Positions 12,591 through 59,015 of a DNA stretch of 64,000 nt are shown here, piece after piece. A program made the position numbers and the translations under genes. Positions within the stretch are counted from its first letter, which is position 1. Each line of letters opens with the position of its first letter. A model generated the notes under the pieces. The model did not search any database. It was not told where the DNA came from and saw nothing but the letters and a program-made list of their open reading frames with translations. The stretch is from a virus: IMG/VR virus record IMGVR_UViG_3300029786_000322; one strand, given 5' to 3'.

Positions 12591-12602
12591 TTCAAAAAAT
12601 CT

Positions 12603-12629
12603 TTGACGATTTTTCAAAAGGCGCAATAT
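12603..12629 (+). promoter_or_regulatory. conserved promoter-like element copy 4
   Basis: TTGACG-N11-GGCGCAATATGTATAGTG. Confidence 0.65.
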
Positions 12630-12636
12630 GTATAGT

Positions 12637-14002: not shown

Positions 14003-14075
14003 CGCCGCCTGCGGGATTCGAACCCGCGGATAAAGAGTTCAAAGCTCCCTGCGTTAACCTTTTCGCCAAGGCGGA
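14003..14075 (-). tRNA. tRNA-Gln(TTG), provisional
   Basis: T-arm GCGGG-TTCGAAT-CCCGC, anticodon loop CTTTGAA, U1 as in Gln tRNAs. Acceptor pair 1-72 is mismatched. Confidence 0.5.
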
Positions 14076-14076
14076 G

Positions 14077-14144
14077 CACACCCGGAAGGACTCGAACCCT
14101 CGTTACCGGTTTTGGAGACCAGTTTCTGTCCATCAGACAGGTGC
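14077..14144 (-). tRNA. tRNA-Trp(CCA), provisional (short D-arm)
   Basis: Anticodon arm CTGGT-CTCCAAA-ACCGG identical to the canonical Trp arm. T-loop TTCGAGT. Acceptor GCACCTG/CGGGTGT has two G-U pairs. Confidence 0.5.
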
Positions 14145-14148
14145 ATAA

Positions 14149-14219
14149 CAGGCGATAATGGAATCGAACCATTGTTTTCTGAGTCAGAATCAGATGTCTT
14201 ACCATTGAACGAATCGCCC
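14149..14219 (-). tRNA. tRNA-Gln(CTG), provisional
   Basis: Anticodon arm TCTGA-TTCTGAC-TCAGA, T-arm AATGG-TTCGATT-CCATT. Confidence 0.55.
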
Positions 14220-14221
14220 AG

Positions 14222-14295
14222 TATCCCCAAAGGGACTCGAACCCTTAACCGACAGATTAGAAATCTGTTGCTCTTTCCAATTGAGCTATGGGGAT
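14222..14295 (-). tRNA. tRNA-Arg(TCT)
   Basis: Acceptor ATCCCCA/TGGGGAT, D-stem GCTC/GAGC, anticodon arm ACAGA-TTTCTAA-TCTGT, T-arm AAGGG-TTCGAGT-CCCTT. Confidence 0.7.
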
Positions 14296-14301
14296 ATATA
14301 G

Positions 14302-14391
14302 CGCAGACACCGGGGATCGAACCCGGACAGCGGGTGTGCCGCATGCCACATTAGCAGTGTGGAGGGGTACCATTTACCTTTATATGTCTGC
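14302..14391 (-). tRNA. class II tRNA-Ser(GCT), provisional
   Basis: 90 nt. Anticodon arm CCACA-CTGCTAA-TGTGG, long variable arm GCGG..CCGC, T-arm CCGGG-TTCGATC-CCCGG, acceptor GCAGACA/TGTCTGC. Confidence 0.55.
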
Positions 14392-14396
14392 ATAAG

Positions 14397-14468
14397 AGGC
14401 ATCGGAGGGGATCGAACCCTCGCCTTCCGGGTTGCAGCCGGACGCCTTCGCCGTTTGGCTACGATGCC
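14397..14468 (-). tRNA. tRNA-Cys(GCA)
   Basis: Acceptor GGCATCG/CGATGCC, anticodon arm TCCGG-CTGCAAC-CCGGA, T-arm GAGGG-TTCGATC-CCCTC. Confidence 0.7.
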
Positions 14469-14498
14469 ATATAATTCTTCCCGATAAGAGAAGATGAG

Positions 14499-14582
14499 CG
14501 CTGGGGCAGGGAGTCGAACCCTGATATCCTTTCGGAATGACGGTTTTCAGGACCGTTGCTTTACCAGTTGAGCCACCACAGC
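14499..14582 (-). tRNA. class II tRNA-Ser(TGA), provisional (C33, one acceptor mismatch)
   Basis: 84 nt. Anticodon arm ACGGT-CCTGAAA-ACCGT, variable arm TCC-GAAA-GGA, T-arm CAGGG-TTCGACT-CCCTG. Confidence 0.5.
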
Positions 14583-14827
14583 AAAAATAAAAGCATACAC
14601 CTCTCAATCGAAAGATGTATGCTTTGCAATTCCAGGTATTTCCAATATTCTCCCGGAAATTTCCCTACAATGACCACATTTCTTTCAATTTGAGACAATA
14701 TTTATTTGCACGACAACTACGCCAGATACATGACTGCGACTGACTCATACTTGCCTGTGAATATTGTCTCATTACTGCTGTAATCATTGATTTTCCCTTC
14801 CTTTCCTTGGTTTTCTTGAATATTTAG

Positions 14828-14901
14828 TGTGTCTGGTGGGACTTGAACCCGACGACCCCACGATTAAAAGTCGCGTGCTCTGCCAACTGAGCTACAGACA
14901 C
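14828..14901 (-). tRNA. tRNA-Lys(TTT)
   Basis: Acceptor GTGTCTG/CAGACAC, D-arm GCTC-AGTTGGCA-GAGC, anticodon arm CGCGA-CTTTTAA-TCGTG. The T-stem has a 1-nt bulge. Confidence 0.65.
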
Positions 14902-14906
14902 ATAAG

Positions 14907-14978
14907 CGGATCAGGAGGGAATCGAACCCTCATCTTCCGGTAGACAGCCGGATGTACTAGCCGCTATACTACAGATCC
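14907..14978 (-). tRNA. tRNA-Asp(GTC), provisional (U37, one acceptor U-U)
   Basis: Anticodon arm TCCGG-CTGTCTA-CCGGA, T-arm GAGGG-TTCGATT-CCCTC. Confidence 0.55.
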
Positions 14979-14982
14979 ATAA

Positions 14983-15055
14983 AGCTCCCGTCCGGCTTCG
15001 AACCGGAAACCTTCTGATTACAAGTCAGATGCACTACCAGTTGTGCTACAGGAGC
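14983..15055 (-). tRNA. tRNA-Thr(TGT)
   Basis: Acceptor GCTCCTG/CGGGAGC, D-stem GCAC/GTGC, anticodon arm TCTGA-CTTGTAA-TCAGA, T-arm TCCGG-TTCGAAG-CCGGA. Confidence 0.7.
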
Positions 15056-15139
15056 AGGAACACTTCCGACGGGTGCTGCCCCGCTATCTCCGCCGTGACA
15101 GGGCGGTGACTCTGTTGTTTGTCCTCGGAAGTAAATAAG

Positions 15140-15221
15140 TGCGCCGGGGAGGACTCGAACCTCCGGTGTTTCTTTGTGGCTGATTTACAGTCAGCTGCTG
15201 TCGCCTCTGAGCCACCGACGC
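15140..15221 (-). tRNA. class II tRNA-Tyr(GTA)
   Basis: Anticodon arm GCTGA-CTGTAAA-TCAGC, long variable arm, T-arm GGAGG-TTCGAGT-CCTCC, acceptor GCGTCGG/CCGGCGC. Confidence 0.7.
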
Positions 15222-15226
15222 ATAAG

Positions 15227-15298
15227 CTGGTCCGGAGGGTCTCGAACCCTCAACGCCCCGGTTAACAGCCGGGTGCTCTACCATTGAGCTACGGATCA
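15227..15298 (-). tRNA. tRNA-Asn(GTT)
   Basis: D-arm GCTC-AATGGTA-GAGC, anticodon arm CCCGG-CTGTTAA-CCGGG, T-arm GAGGG-TTCGAGA-CCCTC. One A-C acceptor mismatch. Confidence 0.65.
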
Positions 15299-15299
15299 G

Positions 15300-15371
15300 A
15301 GCATGTGACGGGTCTCGAACCCGCCCGTCCTGCTTGGAAGGCAGGTGTGCCGCCAACAACACTTCACATGC
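15300..15371 (-). tRNA. tRNA-Gly(TCC)
   Basis: Acceptor GCATGTG/CACATGC, anticodon arm CCTGC-CTTCCAA-GCAGG, T-arm GCGGG-TTCGAGA-CCCGT. Confidence 0.7.
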
Positions 15372-15436
15372 ATGCGGATAAAAGAAGTGCCTGTTTTCTC
15401 TTATCCATTCAGTTTTTTTACCGCATCGCTGCGGAG

Positions 15437-15508
15437 TGGACAGGAGTGGTAACGATCCACCCTGTAAGGATTTTCAGTCCTTCGCTAATCCATCTCAGCT
15501 ACCTGTCC
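15437..15508 (-). tRNA. tRNA-Phe(GAA) with an atypical T-loop (A54/U58 swapped)
   Basis: Perfect acceptor GGACAGG/CCTGTCC, D-arm GCTG-AGATGGAT-TAGC, anticodon arm AAGGA-CTGAAAA-TCCTT, T-arm GGTGG-ATCGTTA-CCACT. Confidence 0.55.
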
Positions 15509-17598: not shown

Positions 17599-17628
17599 GA
17601 AAATATTTCAAAACATTTCCAAAAACTT

Positions 17629-17655
17629 TTGACGATTTTTTAAATGGCGCAATAT
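17629..17655 (+). promoter_or_regulatory. conserved promoter-like element copy 6
   Basis: TTGACG-N11-GGCGCAATATGTATCATG. Confidence 0.65.
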
Positions 17656-17662
17656 GTATCAT

Positions 17663-17805
17663 GTAAAGGTCATAAACCGAGCTGCCAGGGTTATCGGCTG
17701 GCAGAAATCTTTTCGATATTTGTTTACACTCCGGGGAAACCCGGAAGGGGTAGTGAGGACGCAGCGTGTGCTGTTTCCGGGTTCGATTCCCGGGTATCCC
17801 TTTTG
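17663..17805 (+). ncRNA. structured leader RNA, copy 3
   Basis: Same architecture as copies 1 and 2. CCGGGUUCGAUUCCCGG T-loop-like hairpin plus U-tract. Closing stem AAGGGGUA/UAUCCCUUUU. Confidence 0.55.
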
Positions 17806-18082: not shown

Positions 18083-18808
18083 ATGATGGAGAAAGAAGTA
18101 GTATATGTTGCAGAACTGGATTCCGATGTTGATGATGTCGTTGCGGCACATTACTTATTTAACGAGGGTGTGTTAAAGTGTGTAGTATGCGATCCATATC
18201 CAAGAACACCGGAGGGGTTGGCACGAAAGGGAAAGCTGGAAGCGCTTGGCATCGATGTGGTTAAGAAAATGCCACCGGTTGCAAAATATGTGTTTGTTGG
18301 CGGCGCTCTTACGGCTGTTGCTGGCTATATCCGGATGCACCATGTCGACTGGCTGGTAATGAACGGAGGCTTTGTTGGAGCAAATATTGCGACCTTTGAA
18401 CTGGATAAGTTCAAGGGGAAGAACACTGTCCGTACCTTCAATTTCAACTGCGATGTTGTGGCTGCAGATACGGTTTTGAAAACTGATGAGAAGCATATTT
18501 CTCATATTGTTCTTGTCGGAAAAAACGTCTGCCATGACGTCCGAAATACGAAAAATGGTCTCTGGAGTGGCGAGAAATACAAGAAATTGTTCGATGAGTA
18601 CCGGGTTAAGGATGAGAAGCGTCAACACGACTTGCTTGCCTGCCATGAGGGGCTTGCATTTCTGCGGGGAACCAATGCGATCTGTGAGTATGAGATGGTA
18701 AGACCATACAACACAGGCTTGAATGGCAAGCTGACGCAGTGGGGTAGCACAAAAACCATGGAAACACCATATCGCGAAGTGCTTGCTGCTGTTGGCTACC
18801 AGAATTAA
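18083..18808 (+). CDS. hypothetical protein, about 241 aa
   Basis: GGAGGG RBS. ATG at 18083; the track gives a TTG at 18080. Confidence 0.6.
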   Translation: MMEKEVVYVAELDSDVDDVVAAHYLFNEGVLKCVVCDPYPRTPEGLARKGKLEALGIDVVKKMPPVAKYVFVGGALTAVAGYIRMHHVDWLVMNGGFVGANIATFELDKFKGKNTVRTFNFNCDVVAADTVLKTDEKHISHIVLVGKNVCHDVRNTKNGLWSGEKYKKLFDEYRVKDEKRQHDLLACHEGLAFLRGTNAICEYEMVRPYNTGLNGKLTQWGSTKTMETPYREVLAAVGYQN

Positions 18809-18810
18809 AA

Positions 18811-18915
18811 GCTGCATCATGTGCGGGGGTGTATGGATTGAAATGTCGGAGTATGGTGTAAGAATCATATATATTCCTACGTTGTGCTCCTCCCGGTTGG
18901 TGCACGGGTTGAAAT
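18811..18915 (+). CRISPR. mini CRISPR array C: 2 repeats, 1 spacer
   Basis: GCTGCATCATGTGCGGGGGTGTATGGATTGAAAT, a 35-nt spacer, then GTTGTGCTCCTCCCGGTTGGTGCACGGGTTGAAAT. Starts 2 nt after the upstream stop codon. Confidence 0.55.
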
Positions 18916-19613
18916 ATAGTTCTAAAAATGGTTGGAAGACCTGTTTTTTGGTTACACCCATTGTCAGCTGTAAACCACAGTTAAGGCTTTCGGATGCGGT
19001 TAAAGTTTAAAAAGGCAACACCGCCAGATGGCTGTTCCTTTCGCGCCCTGAGATCAAGAAATCATTATGGGGCGGGCACTTACCAAATGAACTTGAAAGA
19101 AAGATCTACGTGGAATCCATGATCCACAGGACAAAGGATAATCCCATTGTCCTTTATGACTTTGATGACAGGTTTTACCAGTGCATGTACATGCTCCACT
19201 ATGCGTGAAGATGGCACAGTCGCTGAAAGACGGTTCTTAAAACTCCCGGCAGAATACGACTCTCTGCAACATAAGATCGATCATATCAAACGTGCACGGC
19301 ACCATGGTTCCAGACGTGTTTCAAACCTCTGGGCATATGCAGACGACGTCAATAAAGACATTGTTGTAAAAACAGCCCAGTTTGTTACGGATACTGCCGT
19401 GCTGCATGTTAACAGCATGCAGTTGCGGTGTTATCACTGTGTCCTCAGTCAGCGAGTCCATACGGGAAAACAGGTATGGAAGCACGCGAATTTAGTCATG
19501 TGAGACTTCACGGCCGGCCGCCGAAAGGACGTACACTACAAAAGCCTTTTGCACCTGACTTTTCTGTGGTATACTGAAAATATAAAAGATATTTCAAGGA
19601 GAAGGCAGAGAAA

Positions 19614-20506: not shown

Positions 20507-20724
20507 GTTGCGCCCCATTGGGTGCATGGGTTGAAATCTTTATGACCTTCTGAAAAGTGAGGGCATCTTAGTTGCACCCCCGCAAGGGATGTATGGGTTG
20601 AAATTCAATAGAAACAGATGCATTCGAAGGCGTTACAAGTTGCACCCCGCGAGGGGTGTATGGGTTGAAATTGCAGAAAGCTCAGGATTGGAAGGTTGCA
20701 TCCTATGGGATGCATGGATTGAAA
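20507..20724 (+). CRISPR. mini CRISPR array D: 4 repeats, 3 spacers
   Basis: Repeats at 20507-20537, 20571-20604, 20639-20671 and 20695-20724 with divergent stems. Spacer 2 (20605-20637) is near-identical to spacer 2 of array A. Starts 20 nt after the upstream stop. Confidence 0.7.
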
Positions 20725-20764
20725 CGAACATATTTGTTATTATTTATTATTGAGATCAGAAAGG

Positions 20765-20800: not shown

Positions 20801-20828
20801 CAATTTTTTAAAAATTTTCCAAAATCTT

Positions 20829-20855
20829 TTGACGATTTTTTAAAAGGCGCAATAT
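20829..20855 (+). promoter_or_regulatory. conserved promoter-like element copy 7
   Basis: TTGACG-N11-GGCGCAATAT. Its flank CCAAAATCTTTTGAC matches spacer 3 of the main array. Confidence 0.6.
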
Positions 20856-20863
20856 ACATATTG

Positions 20864-21085
20864 AAGGGATAAACAGGGGCTTACCGTTTGTTTCTTCAAT
20901 AAGAGTTTTTCTCTTATATGCCTCCTTAAGTTTCCTGCGCTGCATTTACAGCATTTTGGCAGCGCAGGGGGAATCCACAGGACTGCATTTGACGTTGTGT
21001 GGCGGCCTGCTCATCCGGTTCAACCCCGGAGGATTCCCTTACCGCTTATTTTTGCGGAGACAAAAATTTTAAAAAATATTCAAAA
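20864..21085 (+). ncRNA. candidate small structured RNA between promoter copies 7 and 8
   Basis: No ORF with an RBS. Several strong hairpins, including CCTGCGCTGC...GCAGCGCAGG, GGGAATCC...GGATTCCC and CCGC-ttattttt-GCGG. Confidence 0.35.
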
Positions 21086-21090
21086 ATTCT

Positions 21091-21117
21091 TTGACGATTT
21101 TTTAAAAGGCGCAATAT
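21091..21117 (+). promoter_or_regulatory. conserved promoter-like element copy 8 (cas operon promoter)
   Basis: TTGACG-N11-GGCGCAATAT, 95 nt upstream of cas5. Confidence 0.65.
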
Positions 21118-21170
21118 GTGTATTGAAGGAATAAACAGGGGCTTGCCGCTGTTGATTACCAGAGTTAAAA

Positions 21171-21210: not shown

Positions 21211-21885
21211 ATGGAAAAAGAAAAAATGGGAGTGAAACTAAAAGTCTGGGGAGATTACGCATTGTTCACCAGACCAGAACTGAAAACTGAACGGTATACA
21301 TACGATGTGATGACACCGTCGGCGGCTAGAGGAATTCTGGAATCTATCTACTGGCATCCGGGACTTCGGTGGTATGTAGACAAGATTCATGTATTAAATC
21401 CGATTGCCACTACGAGCGTGAGAAGAAATGAACTTCTCAGTAAGATACCAAAGTCAAATATGCTGCAGGCATACAACGGCGGGGATGTGAAACTGTATAA
21501 CTCGTCAAGAGACGATATTATCCAGAGGGCATCTGTTATTCTCCGGGATGTCTGCTATGTGATTGAGGCGCATTTTGAAATGACAGGGAAAGCGAGCCCA
21601 ACAGACAGCCCGGCAAAGTTTATAAGTATCTTTAACAACAGGGCAAGAAAAGGGGCATGTTATTCGATGCCGTATTTTGGTGTAAGGGAATTCCCGGCAC
21701 ACTTTGAACTCTGCGAAGGAGATGAAAAGATCCCATCCTACTATGAAGGACTTCCGGATAAAGATCTCGGGCTGATGCTTTATGATCTGGATTACTCCTG
21801 CGGTAGAGATATCCAGCCAATGTATTATCATGCGATTATGAAAAACGGCGTTATTGACGTTGGGAACAGTGAGGTGCTTCGATGA
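21211..21885 (+). CDS. cas5: Cas5 (type I-C Cas5d, crRNA-processing subunit)
   Basis: N-terminal LKVWGDYALFTRPE...SAARGILESIYWHPG is the Cas5d signature. The stop overlaps the cas8c start (ATGA). Confidence 0.9.
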   Translation: MEKEKMGVKLKVWGDYALFTRPELKTERYTYDVMTPSAARGILESIYWHPGLRWYVDKIHVLNPIATTSVRRNELLSKIPKSNMLQAYNGGDVKLYNSSRDDIIQRASVILRDVCYVIEAHFEMTGKASPTDSPAKFISIFNNRARKGACYSMPYFGVREFPAHFELCEGDEKIPSYYEGLPDKDLGLMLYDLDYSCGRDIQPMYYHAIMKNGVIDVGNSEVLR

Positions 21886-23621
21886 TCCTTCAGTCACTTG
21901 TGAAATTATATGAAACACTTGCGGATCAGGGAAAAGTGTCCCGTCCTGGCTGGTGTAATGCAAAGGTATCCTATGCGGTGGTTTTAAACCATGATGGGAC
22001 GATTAAAGATATTGTTTCCGTGAAACAGAAAGTGAAGAGAGGAAAGAAGACTGTTGAAATTCCAATAATTATGCAGGTTCCAGAGATGGTCACCCGCGCT
22101 AACAACATTGCCTCCAGCTTTCTCTGCGAAAATGCAAAGTATCTCTTTGGGATTGACGAAAAGATGAGTTTGCGTACACTGGAATGTTTTAAGGCGGCAA
22201 AGAAAAAACATCTTGATATTCTTGATGTTGTGGATTCACCTGTAGCACAGACGGTATGTAACTTTTTCCGTTCATGGGATCCGGAACAGGCGTTGGATCA
22301 ACCGGCTGTTGCAAAACTTGCAGAAGAGTTTTATAAAGGCGGAAACCTCGTTTTTGAAGTAGATGGGGAATATGTGCATGATAATGAAGAAGTCCGCAGG
22401 GCATGGATGGATTACAGCAGTGTACCATATGAAATGGTAACTGGAAGATGCCTTATTACTGGAGAGGAAGCGGAGATTGCCCGCACGCACGGGAAAATCA
22501 AAGGAGTTCCGGGAGCACAGTCATCTGGCGCGTCGCTTGTATCATTTAACGGAGCATCCCTTGAGTCTTATGAAAAAACACAGAGCTACAACGCGCCGAT
22601 TAGCACCTATGCGGCGTATGCATATGTGACCGCGCTGAATTACTTGCTTTCTACGGACGGGTATCACAGCAAGGTAGGAGATTCCATGGTGGTTTTCTGG
22701 ACAGATTCCGGGGATGTGGATGATGTGAGCAGACTGCGGAAGATGATGGGAAGCATCAATGAAAAGGATCACACCCCTACAGATACGGATGAAAAACTGT
22801 ACGTCCTCTGCCTTGCACCAAATGCCGGGCGAATTGCAGTCCGGTTCTTCTATGAGGATGCGATCGGGGTAATCTGGGAAAACCTGTCCGAACATGCCAG
22901 TCGGATGAAGATTGTAAAACCAGTATTTGAGGATCAAGAATTTATCAATATCTGGCAGATGCTCATGGAGACAGTCAACCAGAATCTTACAGATAAAACA
23001 CCTGTCCCGCATATGTCAGCAATGACGTTACAGTCAGTCATTTCGGATACACCGTATCCGCAGAGTCTGTATGCAGGTGTGTTATCTCGTATCCGCGCGG
23101 AGCACAAAGGTGTTACTTACAGAAAAGCATCGATTATTAAAGCTTTTTTAATAAAGAACTACAAATGGGAGGAAGGAAAAAATATGGAAGCATTAAATGA
23201 AGGCTGTAAGGATCGGGCATATATCCTTGGAAGACTGTTTGCGGTTATGGAAAAGGCACAGAAAGAAGCAGTTGGCAATATCAACCAGACAATTTGTGAT
23301 AAGTTTTACAATTCCGCGTGCACAACACCAAGATCGATCTTTCCAGTACTGATCAGGCTATCTAACAGTCATTTAAGTAAGTTGAAACGGACAAAACCGG
23401 GGAGAGGATATTATTTTACAGCTAAAATGCAGGATTTAATGGATAAAATTCCGGTAACAGATGATGATCCGGGATTCCCGCGGCGTTTCTCATATGAGGA
23501 TCAGGGTAAGTTTGCACTTGGTTATTATCATCAGATGCGGGCGGAATATACAAGCAGTAAGTTAAAAGATAATGATTCAGAAGGTGATCAGACAAATGCA
23601 GAGAATATGGAGGAAAACTAA
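21882..23621 (+). CDS. cas8c: Cas8c (Csd1), type I-C large subunit
   Basis: 579 aa. Its position between cas5 and cas7 and its size fit Csd1. N-terminal MILQSLVKLYETL. Confidence 0.85.
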   Translation: MILQSLVKLYETLADQGKVSRPGWCNAKVSYAVVLNHDGTIKDIVSVKQKVKRGKKTVEIPIIMQVPEMVTRANNIASSFLCENAKYLFGIDEKMSLRTLECFKAAKKKHLDILDVVDSPVAQTVCNFFRSWDPEQALDQPAVAKLAEEFYKGGNLVFEVDGEYVHDNEEVRRAWMDYSSVPYEMVTGRCLITGEEAEIARTHGKIKGVPGAQSSGASLVSFNGASLESYEKTQSYNAPISTYAAYAYVTALNYLLSTDGYHSKVGDSMVVFWTDSGDVDDVSRLRKMMGSINEKDHTPTDTDEKLYVLCLAPNAGRIAVRFFYEDAIGVIWENLSEHASRMKIVKPVFEDQEFINIWQMLMETVNQNLTDKTPVPHMSAMTLQSVISDTPYPQSLYAGVLSRIRAEHKGVTYRKASIIKAFLIKNYKWEEGKNMEALNEGCKDRAYILGRLFAVMEKAQKEAVGNINQTICDKFYNSACTTPRSIFPVLIRLSNSHLSKLKRTKPGRGYYFTAKMQDLMDKIPVTDDDPGFPRRFSYEDQGKFALGYYHQMRAEYTSSKLKDNDSEGDQTNAENMEEN

Positions 23622-23622
23622 G

Positions 23623-24534
23623 ATGAGCACACCAATTAAGAACAGATATGATTTCGTAGTATTATTCGACGTAGAGAATGGAAATCCGAACGGTGATCCG
23701 GATGCCGGAAATATGCCGAGAGTTGATCCAGAGACTGGCATCGGGCTTGTGACAGATGCCTGCATAAAGCGCAAGATCCGTAATTATGTGGAAACTGTAA
23801 AAGAAGATGCAGCCGGGTTCAAGATCTATATTAAAGAGGGGGTCCCGCTGAACCGGAGTGACCTTAAGGCAGTCGAAAGTCTTGGTATTGACGTCGGTGA
23901 CGACAAAAATGCACTTGAAGATGTAAAGAAGCTGAAAAAGACAGATGAAGATGTGGATCTTAAGCTCCGTGACTATATGTGTAGTAATTTCTATGATATC
24001 CGTACATTTGGTGCTGTCTTGACTACCTTTACAAAGGCGGCATTAAACTGTGGGCAGGTACGTGGCCCGGTACAGATTGGTTTTGCAAAAAGTATTGATC
24101 CTGTTTTCAGCCAGGATATTACTGTAACCAGAGTTGCAATCACAACGGAAAAGGATGCGGAAAAGAAAAATACAGAAATGGGAAGAAAGAGTATTATTCC
24201 TTATGGACTTTACCGTGTGGAGGGATATATTTCTGCTAATCTTGCCCGTAAGACCACCGGCTTTTCTGAAGACGATCTGGAACTGCTTTGGGAAGCAATC
24301 ATTAACATGTTTGAGAATGACCATTCCGCAGCACGCGGGAAGATGGCAGTGCGTGAGCTCATCGTATTCAAGCATAACAGCGAGCTTGGCAATTGTCCAT
24401 CGTACAAACTGTTTGAAACTGTTGATGTTAAGAAGAATGATGGTGTTGAGTTTCCTCGTAAATATTCCGATTATGCAGTGACTATTCATGAGGATGCGAT
24501 TCCGGATGGCGTGACAATGACTCGCAAAATCTAA
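23623..24534 (+). CDS. cas7: Cas7 (Csd2), type I-C backbone subunit
   Basis: Start at MSTPIKNRYDF with a GGAGGA RBS. DVENGNPNGDPDAGNMPR is the Csd2 signature. Confidence 0.9.
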   Translation: MSTPIKNRYDFVVLFDVENGNPNGDPDAGNMPRVDPETGIGLVTDACIKRKIRNYVETVKEDAAGFKIYIKEGVPLNRSDLKAVESLGIDVGDDKNALEDVKKLKKTDEDVDLKLRDYMCSNFYDIRTFGAVLTTFTKAALNCGQVRGPVQIGFAKSIDPVFSQDITVTRVAITTEKDAEKKNTEMGRKSIIPYGLYRVEGYISANLARKTTGFSEDDLELLWEAIINMFENDHSAARGKMAVRELIVFKHNSELGNCPSYKLFETVDVKKNDGVEFPRKYSDYAVTIHEDAIPDGVTMTRKI

Positions 24535-24784
24535 AAAGATTTCCAGAGATTACAAGGCAACCCGCGTTTTGCGGGCTGCATCTGCTTGGGTTATGCCGAA
24601 ATGTAGAATTCCGGTGCGAACTGAAAGCTTACATAGCTTCTCTGGGAGACTCGCACCGGAAATGGAGGTATTAGTGTACAAAAAGAACACAAAACCCAAC
24701 TGTATAAGGCCGTTTGAGAACAATTAATTAGAGGAATTGTTTATATTTTGGCGATCGGGAGAGTTGTTTCTGTTCACTTTTACA

Positions 24785-25482
24785 GCTACGCCCCATGGAG
24801 GGGCGTATGGATTGAAAATGATTGTTATTGTTTTTTATTCATGGAGAGGAAAGCTACGCCCCATGGAGGGGCGTATGGATTGAAAAGTAAGGTTTCGTCT
24901 CGAAGCCTTTATTCTGTTTTGCTACGCCCCATGGAGGGGCGTATGGATTGAAATACCAAAATCTTTTGACATTCTTATAAATGGTAACAGCTACGTCTTA
25001 TGGGGTACGTATGGATTGAAATCATAATAATTGTAGAGATCTCAATACAAAATAAAGCTGCGTCTCATGGAATACGTATGGATTGAAATGAAAAGGCGAG
25101 TTTGCGAAAGCAGATATTGGAATGTTGCGTCTCGTGGAGTACGTATGGATTGAAATTCCAACTTTAACTACATAACTATCCTGATAAACTTGCTGCACCC
25201 CATGGAGAGTGTATGGATTGAAATTTAAAAAATCATGGATAACATCTGCGATAAGACGTTGCACCTCGCTAGGGGTGTATGGGTTGAAATTTCCATAATC
25301 GGTAGCCAATTATTATCATTAGGTGTTGCACCCCATAGAGGGTGTATGGATTGAAATTATATAAAAATGATGAATATGTAAAAAAAATAAAAGAGTTACG
25401 CTCCATGGAGTGCGTATGGCTTGAAACCTCTTATTTTTTTAAAGATATCACAATTACGCCCAAAGTGGGCTTACGTAAATTT
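24785..25482 (+). CRISPR. main CRISPR array: 10 repeats of 33 nt plus a degenerate terminal repeat, spacers of 33-37 nt
   Basis: Repeats at 24785, 24853, 24921, 24990, 25057, 25124, 25192, 25258, 25325 and 25395. A degenerate eleventh sits at 25454-25482. The first three are identical (GCTACGCCCCATGGAGGGGCGTATGGATTGAAA). Later ones keep the GYTRC 5' end and TATGGATTGAAAT 3' handle but have different, internally complementary stems. Confidence 0.85.
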
Positions 25483-26749: not shown

Positions 26750-27214
26750 ATGTATGGTCTTATTATTAAGAAAAAATGGTTGGATTTAATCATGAGCGGG
26801 CAGAAGACTCTGGAGATCCGCGGAAGCAGGACTTCCCATGCAGGAGAAGAGATTGCGCTTCTCGAAAGCGGATCACAGAAGATCCGTGGTTTTTGTACGA
26901 TTAAAGAAGTAACGGCCTTGGATAAAGGAAAATGGGAAGCACACAGGGATCGCCATTGCGTGGATGTGCCGTGGGAAAATCTTATTAAACGATATAAGAC
27001 GCCATATGCGTGGCACTTATCTTCAATCACACCAACGGAGGAACTTACATATGAGCATCCAAAGGGTGCCGTGATCTGGGTTAACCTGGATCATGTTCCT
27101 GTATTTAAAAAAATGAACAATAAAGGAAGAAATTGTCATGAACAAATCAAGGGAACCAGCTTGCACAAATATTTCATCTCGGGAGGGTTCTATGGAAAAT
27201 ATCATAACTTATAA
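26750..27214 (+). CDS. ASCH-domain (PUA-like) protein
   Basis: KKKWLDLIMSGQKTLEIRGSRTSH matches the ASCH N-terminal beta-barrel motif. Confidence 0.55.
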   Translation: MYGLIIKKKWLDLIMSGQKTLEIRGSRTSHAGEEIALLESGSQKIRGFCTIKEVTALDKGKWEAHRDRHCVDVPWENLIKRYKTPYAWHLSSITPTEELTYEHPKGAVIWVNLDHVPVFKKMNNKGRNCHEQIKGTSLHKYFISGGFYGKYHNL

Positions 27215-32332: not shown

Positions 32333-32524
32333 TTTCTTGCGGAGCAGAGCAGAGGAAGGCTCACCGGGCTCATGACCTGGGTGTCGGATGTTCGATTCCT
32401 TTCTCCGCAATTAATTTTAAAAAAGGGAGGTTATAACATGTTCTAACTGATTAGAAAACATAAACAAGCATTCGTTCAAAAGAAAGATTCGTATGTGAAA
32501 AAAGGATGGGAGGAAAAGAAAATC

Positions 32525-39357: not shown

Positions 39358-40059
39358 ATGAAAATTATTTATTCTAAATATACATTTGAAGAAGTCCACA
39401 ATACAAGAAGAAAATGGTTATCTGATGAACCTGGTACTTCGCATGAAAAAATAAAAATTGTATTACGATCCTTTCCATTTTTAGTTTATTTTTTATTTTG
39501 TGAGTATATCCTTCTCAAGTATACCCTTCTCATTAACATATTTGATTATTCACAGCCGCTGGCTTATAGAAATGTTATGAGGAAAATAATGAACCTTGAT
39601 ATTTATAAAAACGCAGGGGTTTATACGAAGTTTTCAATCGATATACTATCGTACATATGTTATATGAGCGCTATTGGCATTGCATTATGTCTAATAGCGA
39701 TACTAATTTGCAAAATATATAAAAATATTGTATGCAGAATTATACCAATCAGTACGCCATGTATAGATAGAAATAAGAAAAATCGATACGGGTATGATAA
39801 AACAATTGATATTGAAAAATTACTTGAAAGACAGAAAATGTTAAAAGAATTTATCAGTGATCACAATGCAGTATTTGTTCTAACAGGGAACGTGTTAAAA
39901 GTGACAATTTGTGAAGATGGATATTGCGAAGAAAAGTCTTTCCAGTTATCAGAGACAGAAGCAGAAAACATTCGGGAAAATGGGACATTTGATTTTTCTT
40001 ATCTTGATGAAGAATGGGAAAAAATAATGTCGTACATACGAGGAGAAGAGAAAATATGA
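39358..40059 (+). CDS. membrane protein, 233 aa
   Basis: Several hydrophobic helices. Confidence 0.5.
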   Translation: MKIIYSKYTFEEVHNTRRKWLSDEPGTSHEKIKIVLRSFPFLVYFLFCEYILLKYTLLINIFDYSQPLAYRNVMRKIMNLDIYKNAGVYTKFSIDILSYICYMSAIGIALCLIAILICKIYKNIVCRIIPISTPCIDRNKKNRYGYDKTIDIEKLLERQKMLKEFISDHNAVFVLTGNVLKVTICEDGYCEEKSFQLSETEAENIRENGTFDFSYLDEEWEKIMSYIRGEEKI

Positions 40060-40634
40060 ACAGTGAAATATTTAGAGTAGGTCAAACCTACAGTTTCATG
40101 GGTTACGATTGGACGGCCTGTGAGCTGATCAATAAAGGTAAAACCCTTGTGATTCAGTCCCATGGTGTAACCCATGGGGAATGGCCGGGCTTTGTAATGC
40201 CACAGTTTGGCAATGGTAATTACTATGCTGATTCCATTGATGGACAGGATATCAGTGCCTATGACAACAAGATGCAGGCACTCTACGATGCCATCAAGGA
40301 TGCTGAGGATTCATCCACTTCCTATGGTAAGGGATTGTTTCTTATTAGCAAAGAAAAAGTCGGTTTTACGGAATGGGGTAAATCTGGTTCCGGAAATTAC
40401 TGGCAGGCTTTGAAAAAAACAGCGGAAAACGCCTGTTCGTTCGGGTCTCCCGACAACTATGCGTGGCTTGGTACCGTCTACGGTAGCGGCGGCGCGTGGT
40501 ATGTCAACTCGAATGGCGGCGTCTCCTACAACGATCAGAGCGACGACTATGTGGTCGCGCCCGCTTTTAATCTCGACTTATCCAAAGTTGAGGTTGTTGA
40601 AAATCAAATTGTCAAAATAAGGTTAGAAAGGTGA
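40056..40634 (+). CDS. hypothetical protein, tandem paralog A
   Basis: About 60% identical to 40631-41257 (WTACELINKGKTLVIQSHGVTHG...VAPAFNLDLSK). GGAGAAG RBS. Confidence 0.6.
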   Translation: MNSEIFRVGQTYSFMGYDWTACELINKGKTLVIQSHGVTHGEWPGFVMPQFGNGNYYADSIDGQDISAYDNKMQALYDAIKDAEDSSTSYGKGLFLISKEKVGFTEWGKSGSGNYWQALKKTAENACSFGSPDNYAWLGTVYGSGGAWYVNSNGGVSYNDQSDDYVVAPAFNLDLSKVEVVENQIVKIRLER

Positions 40635-41257
40635 AAAATATGAATAGTCAAATTACAAAAAATAACAATGTTTTAGAACTCGGAAAAACATACCAATTTG
40701 CCGGTTATAAATGGACAGCCTGTGAACTGATCAATAAAGGTAAAACTCTTGTGATCCAGTCCCATGGTGTAACCCATGGCGCATGGCCGGGATATGTAAT
40801 GCCGCAGTTCGGCAACGGGAATTTTTATGCAGCAGATATTGATGGCGAGGATATTAGTGCCTACGATGACAAGATGCAGACACTCTACGATGCCATCAAG
40901 GAGGCTGAGGATTCATCCGCTTCCTATAGTAAGGGATTGTTTCTTATTAGCAAAGAAAAAGCCGGTTTTACGGAATGGCGTGAACCCGGCTCTGGAAATT
41001 ACTGGCAGGCTTTGAAAGAGGCTGCGATGAATTATCAGTCGTTCGGGGCTGCCGACGGCATCGCGTCGCTCGGTACTGTCAACGGCAGCAACAACGCGTG
41101 GTATGTCTACTCGGATGGCTACGTCTACAACGACGAAAATCAGGACTACGACTTTGTTGTCGCGCCCGCTTTTAATCTCGATTTATCCAAAATAGAGATT
41201 GTTGGGGACGAGATTATCATTATGCATAAAGAAAATTTTAAAGATGAAGAAAAATAA
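40631..41257 (+). CDS. hypothetical protein, tandem paralog B
   Basis: See paralog A. Confidence 0.6.
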   Translation: MKNMNSQITKNNNVLELGKTYQFAGYKWTACELINKGKTLVIQSHGVTHGAWPGYVMPQFGNGNFYAADIDGEDISAYDDKMQTLYDAIKEAEDSSASYSKGLFLISKEKAGFTEWREPGSGNYWQALKEAAMNYQSFGAADGIASLGTVNGSNNAWYVYSDGYVYNDENQDYDFVVAPAFNLDLSKIEIVGDEIIIMHKENFKDEEK

Positions 41258-41402
41258 TATAATGAATTACGTTTTAAATTTATGGCGAAAAATCCACAGG
41301 CTTGCCTGTGGGATGAAAGCTACATTTTTCACTTACTTGTTTCAACAGTTGGACACATAAGTGAAACTACAGTGATCAAATACATTGAGGAGCAGAAAAC
41401 AC

Positions 41403-42791
41403 ATGGATGCTGACGAGTACAAAAAACTTCTGAAAAAATTTCATAAACTTTCTGACAGGCATATCCTGGTCGCTGAGACGGATATGTCTTATCCTGATGT
41501 GCAGAAGGTCGTAAATTTCTCCGGCAGGATCCGGAAAGCTGGCAATGAGCTTGTTGGTGTCATGAAAAAGAATTATGAACAGCTCATGCGTACCAAAAAG
41601 TACCGCAAGATGCTCCAGCTGTATGGCTCCACTGAGGACAAAAACAAACGCAAAACATATGCCGGACAGCTCAACGAAATGCAGGAACAGTATAATCTCA
41701 CAAAGGAGTCCTGCCGGACGTTGATGATACCCATTGGCAAGAAGTACGGCATTGATGCCATATTTGCCCTCGCGAAAGCCGAGGACGTGTGGCGAGGTGT
41801 TGAAAAATGCCTTTACGGGAATGGAAGGATGCTTCATTTCTCCAGATATGGAGACTTTCCATGCATCAGGGCAAAGCAGATCAACCGCGGCGTCCCGATG
41901 CCCGTAAAAAACGATGAACTGAAGTTTAAGCTGGGAAAATTAGTTTTCGGGATACAGGTCAAAGACCGGTTCCAGACAGACGAAGTCAATGCCGTCCTGG
42001 ATTATCTGGCACAGCCGGAAGTCATAGACAACAAGGCAGTAAAGACTCTTCAGGATGAAGCGTGCTGTATCAGCACGTACCGGCCTTGCTACGCAACGCT
42101 CGTACCGAAATTCATCCGTGGGAAATACAGGGTGTACCTGCATCTCGTCATCGAAGGAAAGGCAAAACCGAAGTACGACAGTTCCGGCAATCCGCGGCAT
42201 AAATACGGCAGGGGCGTCGTTGGTGCGGACATTGGCACACAGACGATAGCCTATACTTCCGATACAGAGACAGGACTTAAAAACTTATCGGAAAGAGGCA
42301 ACAGCATACAGAAATCCGAACGTCTGGAAAGACTGTATTACCGCGCCATGGACCGAAGCAGACGTGCCACGAATCCGGAGAATTACAACGCCGATGGCAC
42401 CATTAAGAAAGGGAAGAAGAAGTGGACTTACTCCAGGCATTACAAAAAGCTGAAGGCAAAACATGCGGAACTCTGCCGCATAAATGCCACAAACAGGCAG
42501 CTTGCCATAAATGAGGATGTAAACCACCTGCGTTGTCTCGGAGATACATTTGTCACGGAACCTAAAAATGCAGCCAGGCTCATGAAACGGGCGAAAGAGA
42601 CAACTGTTAATAACAAAGGCAAGATCAACAGGAAGAAACGTTTTGGAAAGTCGGTAAAGAACCGGTGCCCGGGCGGTTTCCAGGCTGCCGTGGAAAATAA
42701 GTTCAAAACATCCGGCGGTACATATATAGAAGTACCCAATAATTACAGGGCAAGCCAGTATGACCACACGGCAGATGATTACATAAATTAG
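41403..42791 (+). CDS. tnpB: TnpB-like RuvC-fold protein, truncated by an insertion (lacks RuvC-III and the C-terminus)
   Basis: RuvC-I VVGADIGTQTIAYTSD and the central region FQAAVENKFKTSGGTYIEVPNNYRASQYDH. The frame stops right after a 217-bp segment that is repeated at 43153-43370. Confidence 0.6.
   Translation: MDADEYKKLLKKFHKLSDRHILVAETDMSYPDVQKVVNFSGRIRKAGNELVGVMKKNYEQLMRTKKYRKMLQLYGSTEDKNKRKTYAGQLNEMQEQYNLTKESCRTLMIPIGKKYGIDAIFALAKAEDVWRGVEKCLYGNGRMLHFSRYGDFPCIRAKQINRGVPMPVKNDELKFKLGKLVFGIQVKDRFQTDEVNAVLDYLAQPEVIDNKAVKTLQDEACCISTYRPCYATLVPKFIRGKYRVYLHLVIEGKAKPKYDSSGNPRHKYGRGVVGADIGTQTIAYTSDTETGLKNLSERGNSIQKSERLERLYYRAMDRSRRATNPENYNADGTIKKGKKKWTYSRHYKKLKAKHAELCRINATNRQLAINEDVNHLRCLGDTFVTEPKNAARLMKRAKETTVNNKGKINRKKRFGKSVKNRCPGGFQAAVENKFKTSGGTYIEVPNNYRASQYDHTADDYIN
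42570..42788 (+). repeat. direct repeat copy 1 (about 217 bp, tnpB internal segment)
   Basis: Near-identical to 43153-43370. The two copies flank a roughly 365-bp insert. Confidence 0.7.
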
Positions 42792-42812
42792 AGTTGTAGA
42801 AAGGATATATGA

Positions 42813-43193
42813 ATGATTCTAACAGAACATGAACAGGTAATTATTAACAATATGAGACACCCATCAATTCGTACAGTAACGGCGAGCAAATCGTATAAAG
42901 ATTTATCCGATGAAGAGCTTACTTCACTAATTGGCAAAATAGATGACTATGTGAATGAAATTGGTGAAACACAGAGAGCTTTCGGTAATTATGATGAATT
43001 TTACGTATTAGAATTTGATTCGATTAAGGCTCATCTAGTAGATGAATGTCAACGCAGAAAAATTATGCTTAGAATGCAAGGCGATAAATTTGACGTTTAT
43101 CGAAAAGAATATAATGAAATAGTAAATAGCGCAATGAATCATCCTGTTGGATGCAGCCAGACTCATGAAACGGGCGAAAGAGACAACTGTTAA
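42813..43193 (+). CDS. hypothetical ORF inside the insert that splits tnpB
   Basis: 126 aa, RBS AAAGGATATATGAATG. Its end runs into repeat copy 2. Confidence 0.35.
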   Translation: MILTEHEQVIINNMRHPSIRTVTASKSYKDLSDEELTSLIGKIDDYVNEIGETQRAFGNYDEFYVLEFDSIKAHLVDECQRRKIMLRMQGDKFDVYRKEYNEIVNSAMNHPVGCSQTHETGERDNC

Positions 43194-43596
43194 TAACAAA
43201 GGCAAGATCAACAGGAAGAAACGTTTTGGAAAGTCGGTAAAGAACCGGTGCCCGGGCGGTTTCCAGGCTGCCGTGGAAAATAAGTTCAAAACATCCGGCG
43301 GTACATATATAGAAGTACCCAATAATTACAGGGCAAGCCAGTATGACCACACGGCAGATGATTACATAAAAAAGAAGCTGTCCGACAGGATGTATAAACT
43401 TACAGACGGGACACTGGTACAAAGGGACTGGTACTCATCATTCCTGTTGTACTGCTACAATTACAGAACCAATGATATAGATAAAAAGAAATGTGCTGCA
43501 GAATTTAAAAAATGCTACAGCATGGAAAAGGAATTAATTGAATGGATCAAAAAACATAAGATCAAAGTGCTGAACAGCGGAATTAAAACCGCTTGA
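43147..43596 (+). pseudogene. tnpB: displaced C-terminal fragment of tnpB, including the RuvC-III-like QRDWYSSF region
   Basis: In frame with the repeat. Continues ...HTADDYIKKKLSDRMYKLTDGTLVQRDWYSSF, which aligns to the TnpB C-terminus. Confidence 0.5.
43153..43370 (+). repeat. direct repeat copy 2
   Basis: See copy 1. Confidence 0.7.
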
Positions 43597-44023
43597 CTAT
43601 ATGTTCGTAGGGAGACTGACTATGCTTCCTTGTCGCCAGACAGAAATTTACTGAAAAACAACTAGCTTTCTTTACATAATAATGTGGCCGTAGGGCTGCA
43701 TGGTAATAAAGTCCTTGCTTGAAATAGACTTATACCTGTATTCCAAAGCCTGCAAATGGTGTACGATTACAGGCAAAACTTGAGAGCAAGAACCCCACAG
43801 GCTTGCCTGTGGAAGTAGTCAGTTATGCCGTATTAAACGATTGTCCTCCTGGAACAACGACATATTTTTTTGTTGAAAAAATGTTCAGAAGAAAAATCAA
43901 ATGAGAATATTAGAGATAACATTCTTAAATCAAGTAACACTTATAGTTTCATGGAGAGATAGGTTAACTACTCCTGACAATGCAGGAGACTTTTTCTTAG
44001 ATATTTTATTAAATAAATGACCG

Positions 44024-44059: not shown

Positions 44060-44098
44060 TAATTTCGCAAAAATTTTTAAAAACTTTTCAAGATTTCT

Positions 44099-44125
44099 TT
44101 GACGATTTTTCAAATGACGCAATAT
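44099..44125 (+). promoter_or_regulatory. conserved promoter-like element copy 10
   Basis: TTGACG-N11-GACGCAATAT. Confidence 0.55.
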
Positions 44126-44168
44126 CTATAGTGTAAGGATAAAAATGCGAAGTACAAGGAGGAAAAAT

Positions 44169-57485: not shown

Positions 57486-59015
57486 ATGGGTTACATGCGT
57501 ACTGCAACTGTATATATCAATGAGGGACACCCTCTGTTCAAATATGCAGACAACTTAACAGCACTGACCAACAACCTCAGTAACGCGGCACGTTTCCGTC
57601 AGCGGCAGGTGCTCTCAGCTGTCTCCAAAGAGGAAGCTGACTGGACAGCCAACGAGCGCGAGGTTATGGAGGAAATCCGTAAAACAGTCCCTCTGAGGGA
57701 AAAGGCATCCATGCCGACCAAAGGAAAACATTTCCTCGGATATATGTTTCTTGAGGGGATCTTGCGGGTGAACCATAACCCGGATTTTTACGCTGAAGGA
57801 CTGCCTCGCCAGACAGCACAGCATGTCTTAAAGACTGCAGTGAAAGACATGAAGAGTTTTTATAAAGCCATTAAGGAATACAATAAAAACCCTGACCGTT
57901 TCACCGGACAGCCAGAACTTCCAGGCTACAAACGCAAGGGAGGCCATTCCACTGCGCTGATCACCAACCAGGACTGCACAATCAAAACCTGTGACGGCAA
58001 GTGGTATGCGTACTTTCCTCACGCAAAGGATAAACCCGTGTGCCTTGGATATCCGATACCGAATGCAAGACTTAAACAGGCATGCATCACTCCGAACAAC
58101 GGACGGTATAAGTTGTCCTTTCAGTTTGAAGTAGATGCAGATATCCCGGAAATCCCAGAGGATATCCGTCCAGAGCGTATCTGTGCCATTGACTTTGGTG
58201 TGGACAACCTTATGTCGGTCACAAACAACTGCGGTCTGCCATCCCTGATTTATAAAGGCGGTGTGGCAAAGTCCGTCAACCAGAAATACAACAAAACGAT
58301 AGCTGCACTCGTGAGCGAGCAGACCCTCCGTACCGGGGAAAAGTTTGTCCCAGATGCAGCGTATCACGCTGCAACAAACAGAAGAAACGACCAGATCTCT
58401 GATTTCATGCGAAAGTGCGCAAAACACTTCGTGGCATGGTGCATAGAAAACCGTATCGACACCGTTGTCATGGGTATAAACAAGTACTGGAAGCAGGAAG
58501 CAGGCCTCGGCAAAAGAAACAACCAGAACTTTGTGCAGCTCCCGTTTGACAGGCTGCGTAACATCATCCGCTATCTCTGCGTATGGGAAGGCATCTTCTG
58601 TCTGGATCAGGAGGAAAGCTATACTTCAAAAGCAAGCTTTCCGGACAGGGACTTTATCCCTGTATACGGTAATGAGAAAGGAAAACCCTCCTTCTCCAGA
58701 CAGCGGAGACCTGTACATTACAAGGGAATGTACAAAAAGGATGGCTTCCGCGGGCTTTATACAACAAAATCCGGCGATATCATCAACTCCGACCTGAATG
58801 GATCTGCAAATATCCTGCGGAAAGCATTCCCAAACGCTTTCACAGAAAAACCTGCGCCTGATTTTAACAGTGTGGTAATTATCCGCCATCCGGATGAAGA
58901 AAAAGTCAAAAATAACCGGAAGAAACAGACGGCAGTGCAAAAACAGGACAGCCATGCAAAAATCAAACGGCAGCGCAAAAAGGATGCAAAGCGTAAAAAA
59001 CATCCGGCTGCGTAA
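57486..59015 (+). CDS. tnpB: TnpB-like RNA-guided-nuclease-family protein (RuvC-I/II/III present, zinc finger degenerate). No tnpA present
   Basis: RuvC-I ICAIDFGVDNLMSVT, RuvC-II region VAWCIENRIDTVVMGINKYWKQ, EESYTSK, RuvC-III INSDLNGSANILRK. AAAGGAGACAACTGATATG RBS. Confidence 0.85.
   Translation: MGYMRTATVYINEGHPLFKYADNLTALTNNLSNAARFRQRQVLSAVSKEEADWTANEREVMEEIRKTVPLREKASMPTKGKHFLGYMFLEGILRVNHNPDFYAEGLPRQTAQHVLKTAVKDMKSFYKAIKEYNKNPDRFTGQPELPGYKRKGGHSTALITNQDCTIKTCDGKWYAYFPHAKDKPVCLGYPIPNARLKQACITPNNGRYKLSFQFEVDADIPEIPEDIRPERICAIDFGVDNLMSVTNNCGLPSLIYKGGVAKSVNQKYNKTIAALVSEQTLRTGEKFVPDAAYHAATNRRNDQISDFMRKCAKHFVAWCIENRIDTVVMGINKYWKQEAGLGKRNNQNFVQLPFDRLRNIIRYLCVWEGIFCLDQEESYTSKASFPDRDFIPVYGNEKGKPSFSRQRRPVHYKGMYKKDGFRGLYTTKSGDIINSDLNGSANILRKAFPNAFTEKPAPDFNSVVIIRHPDEEKVKNNRKKQTAVQKQDSHAKIKRQRKKDAKRKKHPAA

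Follow-up and report, generated by a model that had tools for sequence, protein, structure and literature searches.

The window analysed here is a 64,000-nt stretch of viral DNA (IMG/VR record IMGVR_UViG_3300029786_000322), and the feature of interest is a 2.5-kb IS200/IS605-family insertion sequence (IS) on its plus strand, at ~41276-43822, that is bracketed by identical hairpins and carries a tnpB gene broken into two parts. We established the anatomy of this element, the donor of the DNA inserted into it, the membership of its protein in the TnpB fold, the structure of its omegaRNA and the polymorphism of the locus. The element is very likely a non-autonomous IS whose tnpB recently became a pseudogene, with decay as the best explanation of its present form.

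The 5' tnpB open reading frame (ORF) lies at 41403-42791 (+) and encodes 462 aa from the ATG at 41403, the form that gene callers give in all relatives, or 468 aa from a TTG at 41385. It covers the N-terminal domains, RuvC-I and RuvC-II and stops at residue 461 of a protein that is 536 aa long in relatives where it is intact, so that RuvC-III is left out. Codons ~389-461 of tnpB are present twice, as a 220-bp direct duplication with a single mismatch between copy 1 (42568-42787, +) and copy 2 (43151-43370, +). Between the two copies lies a 363-bp insert (42788-43150, +) with a GC content of 33%, compared to 46-48% in tnpB. A chimeric 126-aa ORF (42813-43193, +) starts within the insert behind its native ribosome-binding site (RBS), GAAAGGA, and joins 112 residues of a phage protein to 14 residues encoded by out-of-frame tnpB sequence. 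The displaced 3' part of tnpB, at 43147-43596 (+), encodes 149 aa from a TTG or 143 aa from the ATG at 43165 and contains a degenerate TNB region, RuvC-III (QRDWY) and the C-terminal helix, with no obvious Shine-Dalgarno sequence before either start. Removing the insert and one repeat copy restores a single 542-codon frame. An earlier sequence-only reading of this locus had described the same layout: a 468-aa first ORF ending after RuvC-II, a RuvC-III-containing C-terminus displaced to 43147-43596, a 217-bp duplication (42570-42788 and 43153-43370) and a 365-bp insert with its own small ORF. This description proved essentially right, with the duplication and the insert differing by a few bases from the values given here.

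Direct scans gave little indication of the protein family. At E<=0.1, neither the reconstructed 542-aa protein nor either fragment matched Pfam (PF01385, PF07282 and PF12323 included); the same three sequences had no meaningful NCBIfam match, a single-sequence search against PDB sequences returned nothing, and among PHROGs only the generic 'transposase' family phrog_506 matched (1e-16). Membership was therefore assigned through profiles, structure and distant relatives. The comparison to TnpB hidden Markov models (HMMs) that the sequence-only reading had proposed gave no Pfam match for the window protein, and the motif positions were instead set from alignments of its relatives. A profile built from 13 sequences retrieved Cas12n (9j09, 9.5e-6), Cas12p and ISDra2 TnpB from PDB sequences. 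Distant relatives match TnpB HMMs themselves, including an archaeal one (L043, PF07282, 1.5e-6) and three others (P0140, P0146 and P0201, PF01385/PF12323), and more distant Bacillaceae relatives with PF01385 or PF12323 carry the NCBI name 'RNA-guided endonuclease TnpB family protein'. An AlphaFold2 model of an intact, 96% identical homologue (P0001) reached a pLDDT (predicted local distance difference test) score of 90.3, and a Foldseek search of the PDB with this model returned ISFba1 TnpB (8iaz, 2.7e-13) and ISDra2 TnpB (8h1j, 3.6e-12), followed by Cas12f. The model thus indicates a TnpB/Cas12f fold for the intact protein, and the family is a divergent TnpB.

The intact homologue has its best fold matches among TnpB nucleases (ISDra2, 8h1j/8exa; ISFba1, 8iaz) and Cas12f, and it shares with them the D-E-D RuvC triad and the QRD motif at RuvC-III. 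None of the three residues D276, E386 and D481 varies in the 13-sequence alignment. A 90-sequence alignment again shows no variation at E386 and D481, and at least 90% conservation at D276. The family differs from these nucleases in its low identity to them (only 10-14%), its enlarged N-terminal helical part and its degenerate TNB domain. No zinc-ribbon CxxC...CxxC is found between RuvC-II and RuvC-III, where the Firmicutes branch reads ASQYDHTADDY...DGT..QRD and has no cysteines. Archaeal relatives retain SQxCHxCG...CC, and the alignment points to loss of the zinc-ribbon cysteines in the Firmicutes branch.

The window gene also differs from characterised TnpB nucleases in being split. RuvC-I (D276) and RuvC-II (E386) are encoded by the first ORF and RuvC-III (D481) by the displaced C-terminal ORF alone, so that no single polypeptide of the window holds the complete triad. 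Missing from the 462-aa fragment are the last 75 residues, including the RuvC-III aspartate D481 and the C-terminal helix, and it therefore cannot be a nuclease. Read on the P0001 model, truncation at residue 461 removes two strands, the D481-bearing helix and the C-terminal helix. The fragment is most likely the non-functional product of a pseudogene.

Both tnpB ORFs are open in most alleles that carry the interruption and jointly hold D276, E386 and D481, which would suit a split enzyme in which the 462-aa and 143/149-aa products, together amounting to the whole protein with a 73-residue overlap, reassemble into an active nuclease. The C-terminal ORF has no recognisable Shine-Dalgarno sequence at either of its starts, the 73-aa overlap would clash sterically, and variants with a frameshift in repeat copy 1 exist. 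Reassembly is highly improbable on these grounds, and we know of no precedent for a TnpB acting as a split enzyme.

The donor of the insert was found in a different phage. The stretch 42785-43150 matches MT835474.1 (L001 18606-18971), an unannotated gut phage contig, at 98.6% identity over 366 bp; the remainder of this contig is unrelated to the window. The matching stretch of MT835474.1 comprises the RBS and codons 1-112 of a 157-aa ORF (18634-19107) that runs 45 codons further, showing that the insert is a copied 5' fragment of another phage's gene. The left insert junction has a 3-nt AAA microhomology common to both parents, and the right junction has none. The 157-aa gene family is also present, among other places, in a Eubacterium ramulus assembly, and its protein is modular, with the N-terminal 88 residues also occurring as a stand-alone ORF in many contigs (e.g. 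P0276 and P0280). Pfam, PHROG and NCBIfam scans gave no meaningful match for this family. Approximately 8 kb from the donor gene, MT835474.1 also carries, within 26940-26998, an isolated ~42 nt that look like the hairpin-bearing IS end in inverted orientation, with no tnpB match beside them.

Since IS copies are repetitive and the donor gene belongs to another phage, assembly could in principle have mis-joined an IS repeat with that phage's reads. The complete arrangement of 462-, 126- and 143-aa ORFs, with both junctions identical, recurs in more than 20 contigs from independent human-gut samples and studies. These were built by different assemblers (SPAdes NODE_, MEGAHIT k141_ and others) and include contigs of 200-375 kb and an NCBI assembly. 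An assembly artefact is thereby effectively refuted, and we give it almost no weight. The lineage was found solely through the ENA, NCBI and Logan protein indexes, and a scan of IMG/VR for the left junction gave 0 matches.

Tandem duplication with a templated insertion at the junction is a product of replication template switching, as in rearrangements of the FoSTeS/MMBIR (fork stalling and template switching/microhomology-mediated break-induced replication) type. The tnpB lesion shares with this type a short direct duplication around a remotely templated stretch and junction microhomology of 0-3 nt. Because these features together are the expected product of a template switch, we infer that one complex illegitimate-recombination event in a co-infected cell would have broken tnpB, producing the 220-bp tandem duplication with the 363-bp phage-gene copy filling its junction. 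The template path would have left tnpB for the other phage's gene and then returned to tnpB at a point 220 bp upstream. The case differs from FoSTeS/MMBIR-type rearrangements in that the mechanism is deduced from its product alone and that the template is another phage's gene, implying co-infection or an unsampled copy in the same genome. Alternatively, two independent deletions could have occurred in an ancestor that had one IS copy on each side of the 157-aa gene; none of the sequences collected shows this arrangement.

The ends of the element have the architecture of the IS200/IS605 family, in agreement with the sequence-only reading, which had called it an IS605-like element with hairpin ends. 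The window contains exactly two occurrences of the 18-nt palindromic hairpin CCACAGGCTTGCCTGTGG (41294-41311 and 43795-43812), against 0.01 expected by chance. The identical pair bracketing a tnpB-like gene had already been recognised, with the start of the second hairpin placed one base too early, at 43794. The left end (LE; 41276-41336, +) includes the first hairpin in subterminal position, and homology to copies at other loci (L002 and L047) begins at 41271-41276. Directly 5' of the LE is the pentanucleotide GTTTT (41271-41275, +), GTTAT in most copies, which is likely a target or target-adjacent motif (TAM)-like sequence belonging to the flank and not to the element. Across 15 copies, the conserved sequence starts at GTTAT(AA), or at GTTTT, GTTGC, GTTAC or ATTAT, just before ..TTATGGCGAAAA and the hairpin. 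The right end (RE; 43795-43822, +) consists of the second hairpin followed by AAGTAGTCAG, and the element ends at 43822: every copy terminates in the hairpin and GAGYAGTCAG and diverges beyond, and homology to L047 ceases at 43823. The flanks of the copies have no direct repeat, and a GTTAT-like pentamer precedes the LE in all of them. The LE boundary, good only to a few bases, and the TAM are approximate because none of the 20 places sampled via two flanking genes was an empty (IS-free) site.

Recurrence of the hairpin ends in other IS copies, which the sequence-only reading had named as a check, was observed widely. Hairpins bound more than 15 other copies and sit at equivalent positions of both ends in at least 15 copies from Lachnospiraceae, Erysipelotrichaceae and Oribacterium genomes, with compensatory changes in the stem (CCACAGG/CCTGTGG, CCATAGG/CCTATGG, CCACGGG/CCCGTGG and CCACTGG/CCAGTGG). 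In total, 34 related loci were found in reference genomes, mostly of Lachnospiraceae, Erysipelotrichaceae, Oribacterium, Butyrivibrio and Holdemanella. In the closer copies, one hairpin lies ~175-210 nt past the tnpB stop codon, and the other lies ~680 nt before the tnpB start if a 138-143-aa upstream gene is present and ~110-190 nt before it if that gene is absent. The upstream gene of these sister copies encodes the Y1 transposase TnpA (PF01797, 5.9e-36).

The window retains only the last 25 codons and the stop of tnpA (41337-41413, +), with a translation (..LVSTVGHISETTVIKYIEEQKTHGC) that matches the C-terminus of the 143-aa Y1 transposase of L006. The copies L006, L047 and L053 hold ~545 bp extra at this position, and all three have a full tnpA. 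Because the last 25 codons remain, comparison with these copies indicates that the tnpA of the window was deleted and not absent from the origin. The sequence-only statement that there is no tnpA was thus correct for a functional gene and overlooked the remnant. With no Y1 HUH transposase encoded in the window copy and a full gene in its sisters, the copy is a non-autonomous derivative of the family.

Like IS200/IS605 elements of the IS608 and ISDra2 type (Y1 TnpA, TnpB and omegaRNA), the element has subterminal hairpins at both ends, in the same orientation and without terminal inverted repeats, a conserved pentanucleotide 5' of the LE, a structured RNA at its 3' end that reaches the RE boundary and, in sister copies, a PF01797 tnpA upstream of and overlapping tnpB; tnpA-less derivatives are common in the family. 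It differs from them in that the window copy has no tnpA and a broken tnpB, and in that its TnpB is long (536 aa), has no zinc-ribbon cysteines and is missed by the Pfam OrfB_IS605 and Cas12f1-like_TNB models. A promoter scan of the element performed no better than on shuffled sequence.

We read the conserved 3' structure at ~43616-43822 (+), which ends at the RE, as an omegaRNA-like scaffold on the basis of covariation across 16 copies. The fold contains 45 pairs, 98.6% of them paired across the copies, and 9 pairs (52 cells) have compensatory double changes; slid controls gave at most 2 double-change cells, and 0 of 500 shuffles reached the observed values. A long-range helix pairs the last 8 nt of the element with a site 200 nt upstream. 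The window copy retains 43 of the 45 pairs. An Rfam scan at the gathering threshold returned tRNAs only and no omegaRNA family. Following known TnpB/omegaRNA architecture, the flank at 43823-43842 (+; TTATGCCGTATTAAACGATT) would take the place of the guide, and this putative 20-nt guide has no second match in the window at <=3 mismatches.

Allele counts at the locus were obtained from 14 distinct related contigs, sampled without bias through two genes flanking the IS. Two contigs carry an intact 536-aa tnpB (L057/L067 and L062), and two more carry an uninterrupted gene with a frameshift, near codon ~182 in L055 and through a CCC>CC change at the CPGG codons in L065. The interruption is present in the remaining contigs, as in the window in seven and together with the same CCC>CC frameshift in repeat copy 1 in three. 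This 1-bp deletion (GTGCCCGGGCGG to GTGCCGGGCGG, equivalent to window positions 42667-42672) cuts the ORF to 441 aa. Its carriers are L054/L064, L061/L070 and L069, in repeat copy 1, and the uninterrupted L065, so that either a recurrent homopolymer slip or spread by recombination would place it on both backgrounds. Disruption of one locus in several independent ways is a signature of relaxed constraint. The sequence-only reading had offered simple decay as its alternative, and the occurrence of intact, frameshifted, interrupted, and interrupted and frameshifted alleles at one locus makes that alternative the better explanation.

Two further settings pair the interrupted allele with a complete Y1 tnpA. 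In L006 (5301-8418) the right flank is the same as in the window and the left flank is different. In L047 (2303-5430) both flanks are different, with a PARG-domain region on one side of the element and a LigA gene on the other, and the homology to the window ends exactly at the element ends. These comparisons suggest that recombination or transposition has carried the broken allele from one IS copy or locus to another. Related genomes also carry, at a further locus, a sister copy in which both tnpA and tnpB are fully intact (L053).

Divergence of the interrupted copies from the window reaches 7.5%, and their frames are still open, which at first glance hints at purifying selection. Their differences, however, are mosaic and block-wise, with 0 mismatches per 100 bp in some blocks versus 15-22 in others, and hardly any variation is seen in any copy between the start of repeat copy 1 and the end of copy 2, insert included. 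Because of this invariance and this block-wise pattern, the simplest reading of the alignments is that the interruption is young and had a single origin, and that the divergent blocks were probably imported by gene conversion or recombination from live IS copies. Since such donors are functional, the open frames are uninformative about selection on the truncated gene, and dN/dS (the ratio of nonsynonymous to synonymous substitution rates) would gauge selection on the donor IS copies instead. The window itself has ~22 mismatches per 100 bp against all other interrupted copies at 43537-43736 (the tnpB 3' end and the 5' part of the omegaRNA), where it resembles L051 and L029, and its repeat copy 2 has been homogenised to copy 1; these features point to local gene conversion specific to the window lineage. 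In the segment that is duplicated elsewhere, L062 is similar to copy 1 towards the 5' end and to copy 2 towards the 3' end, a pattern that fits a crossover revertant and an ancestor alike, and the intact alleles of L057 and L062 may be either. Recombination between the repeats would precisely restore an intact tnpB, because they are 220 bp long and nearly identical.

The history of the element would then have begun with insertion of a tnpA- and tnpB-carrying IS, relatives of which reside in Lachnospiraceae, between two genes of a large phage-like human-gut genome. An internal deletion of ~545 bp would have removed tnpA and spared its last 25 codons, and the template switch described above would have broken tnpB. 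As the LE and RE hairpins and the omegaRNA are intact, sister copies with tnpA could still recombine with, gene-convert or mobilise the window copy, and such exchange through the intact cis parts would account for the mosaic sequence and for the same broken allele in two other contexts. Spread to these contexts can be explained by the same gene conversion or recombination, or by TnpA-mediated transposition of the intact ends.

Several observations weigh against decay. With 10 of 14 contigs, the interrupted allele predominates, and it also occurs with tnpA in two other contexts, L006 and, at a different locus, L047; its majority and its spread could be due to an advantage and not to hitch-hiking. 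In most copies the 462-aa ORF has stayed open. The captured fragment, which has its own RBS, a complete 88-aa module and a stand-alone counterpart elsewhere, may be expressed and functional. Any activity of the truncated protein or of the captured 126-aa ORF is, in our view, unlikely. There is a similarly small chance that the interrupted allele is non-neutral, either because a RuvC-III-less TnpB that can still load the intact omegaRNA serves as an RNA-guided DNA binder, for example by shielding the donor joint or a host target from cutting by active TnpB copies, or because the captured 126-aa N-module protein is a useful addition to the phage.

If selection had acted on the captured gene, the rearrangement would have persisted because it brought this genome an expressed protein of 126 aa with the whole N-module of the 157-aa phage protein, and loss of tnpB would be incidental. 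Retention of the native RBS and start codon and the stand-alone occurrence of the 88-aa N-module in many contigs agree with such a role, as does the near-constancy of the insert among alleles with up to 8% difference in their tnpB parts. A recent origin, however, equally predicts this near-invariance, the lack of any meaningful Pfam, PHROG or NCBIfam match for the 157-aa family gives no support to a function, and the 14-residue tail is out-of-frame tnpB sequence. Taken together, selection for the captured gene appears quite unlikely.

The remaining functional possibility is a domesticated, nuclease-dead TnpB resembling TldR proteins, as the sequence-only reading had proposed. The 462-aa fragment would fold, load omegaRNA made from ~0.8 kb downstream and work either as a repressor or DNA binder guided by RNA or, in a dominant-negative manner, as a block to cleavage by intact TnpB. 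Many characterised TldRs are C-terminal truncations that have lost the zinc-finger (ZnF)/RuvC part and still bind DNA (PMC10705468). The window protein shares with TldRs (Wiegand et al., PMC10705468) and with other inactivated TnpBs (Altae-Tran et al. 2023, PMC10691335) a TnpB origin, the loss of the C-terminal RuvC part, a phage-like carrier genome and a guide RNA scaffold nearby, which in the window is intact, and the interrupted allele is common and present in three contexts.

In a TldR the inactivating lesion would be expected to be fixed across a clade and kept by selection, whereas the lesion here arose recently by structural accident and is still polymorphic in one population, with four allele types at one locus in near-identical genomes and further frameshifts accumulating (3 of 10 interrupted alleles are cut to 441 aa). 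A TldR would also be expected to have lost its transposon context and gained a stable link to a non-transposon gene, whereas the LE, the RE and the tnpA remnant are all retained here. No conserved non-transposon partner gene was found: the neighbours of the interrupted element differ in L047 and L006, and the sole new 'partner' is the captured fragment inside the gene. A TldR guide would be expected to match a promoter target next to a TAM; within the window, the putative guide matches its own flank only, and no promoter target was seen there. The open ORF is accounted for by gene conversion, and stable folding is uncertain in a fragment predicted to have lost two strands and a helix that complete the RuvC fold. 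The sequence-only reading was right on the anatomy, and the regulator that it proposed is unsupported given the polymorphic lesion, the retained mobile-IS ends and omegaRNA, the missing partner, the guide confined to its own flank and gene conversion. We regard a TldR-like role as very unlikely.

The host replicon looks like a very large phage or another large extrachromosomal element, because of its 13-tRNA cluster, its gene content, its many small ORFs without a family and the related contigs of 200-375 kb, such as JBKXCZ010000008.1 of GCA_046994035.1. The tRNA cluster, at 14003-15508 (-), is typical of very large phages, and one further tRNA lies at 32338-32410 (+). Among the genes of the window are helicase and methyltransferase genes and genes resembling PcfJ and flotillin. 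A type I-C Cascade operon at 21211-24534 (+) encodes cas5c (PF09704, 2.5e-38), cas8c/Csd1 (PF09709, 3e-165) and cas7c (PF05107, 1e-107); no cas3 or adaptation gene was found among the scanned ORFs neighbouring it. Short, degenerate CRISPR-like arrays lie on either side of the operon (20513-20725 and 24784-25435); their period is ~67 nt, and their repeats end in ..GTATGGATTGAAAT.

A second, unrelated TnpB-type gene of 509 aa at 57486-59015 (+) matches PF01385 (1e-8) and phrog_506 (2.6e-21) and is not accompanied by CCACAGG hairpins; in related genomes, a 595-671-aa OrfB_IS605 gene adjoins the intact sister IS (L051 and L053). Directly left of the IS are two tandem paralogous genes of 206 and 208 aa (40014-40634 and 40631-41257, +) without a family match, which have 72-88% DNA identity to more copies nearby in related contigs (L003 ~2300-2900). 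An AT-rich intergenic repeat of ~55-85 nt (..TTTTGACGATTTTTTAAAAGGCGCAATAT..) occurs at 20802-20886 and 21064-21148 and in shorter form at ~12586-12644, 17627-17670 and 44091-44143. One of its intergenic sites directly precedes the DUF5052 gene on the right side of the IS, and the related loci L006 and L051 contain the repeat too; it looks like a shared promoter or regulatory element.

These findings are chiefly of value in tidying the annotation. They delimit an IS200/IS605 element by its hairpins, together with its omegaRNA, for a TnpB subfamily that is missed by Pfam, has 536 aa and no zinc-ribbon cysteines and is common in Lachnospiraceae and their phages. The 'split TnpB' of this locus is a pseudogene allele rather than a regulator. 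The locus provides a natural example of IS gene decay in a widespread gut phage-like genome, through tnpA deletion, duplication with templated insertion, recurrent homopolymer frameshift and gene conversion between copies. It likewise exemplifies the copying of part of one phage's gene into another element. If the interrupted allele were non-neutral, it would capture TnpB domestication or IS-mediated gene capture at its first step, with ancestral and derived alleles still segregating. If the truncated TnpB were itself exapted, the locus would give an unusually early snapshot of that process, with the ancestral allele at hand for comparison.

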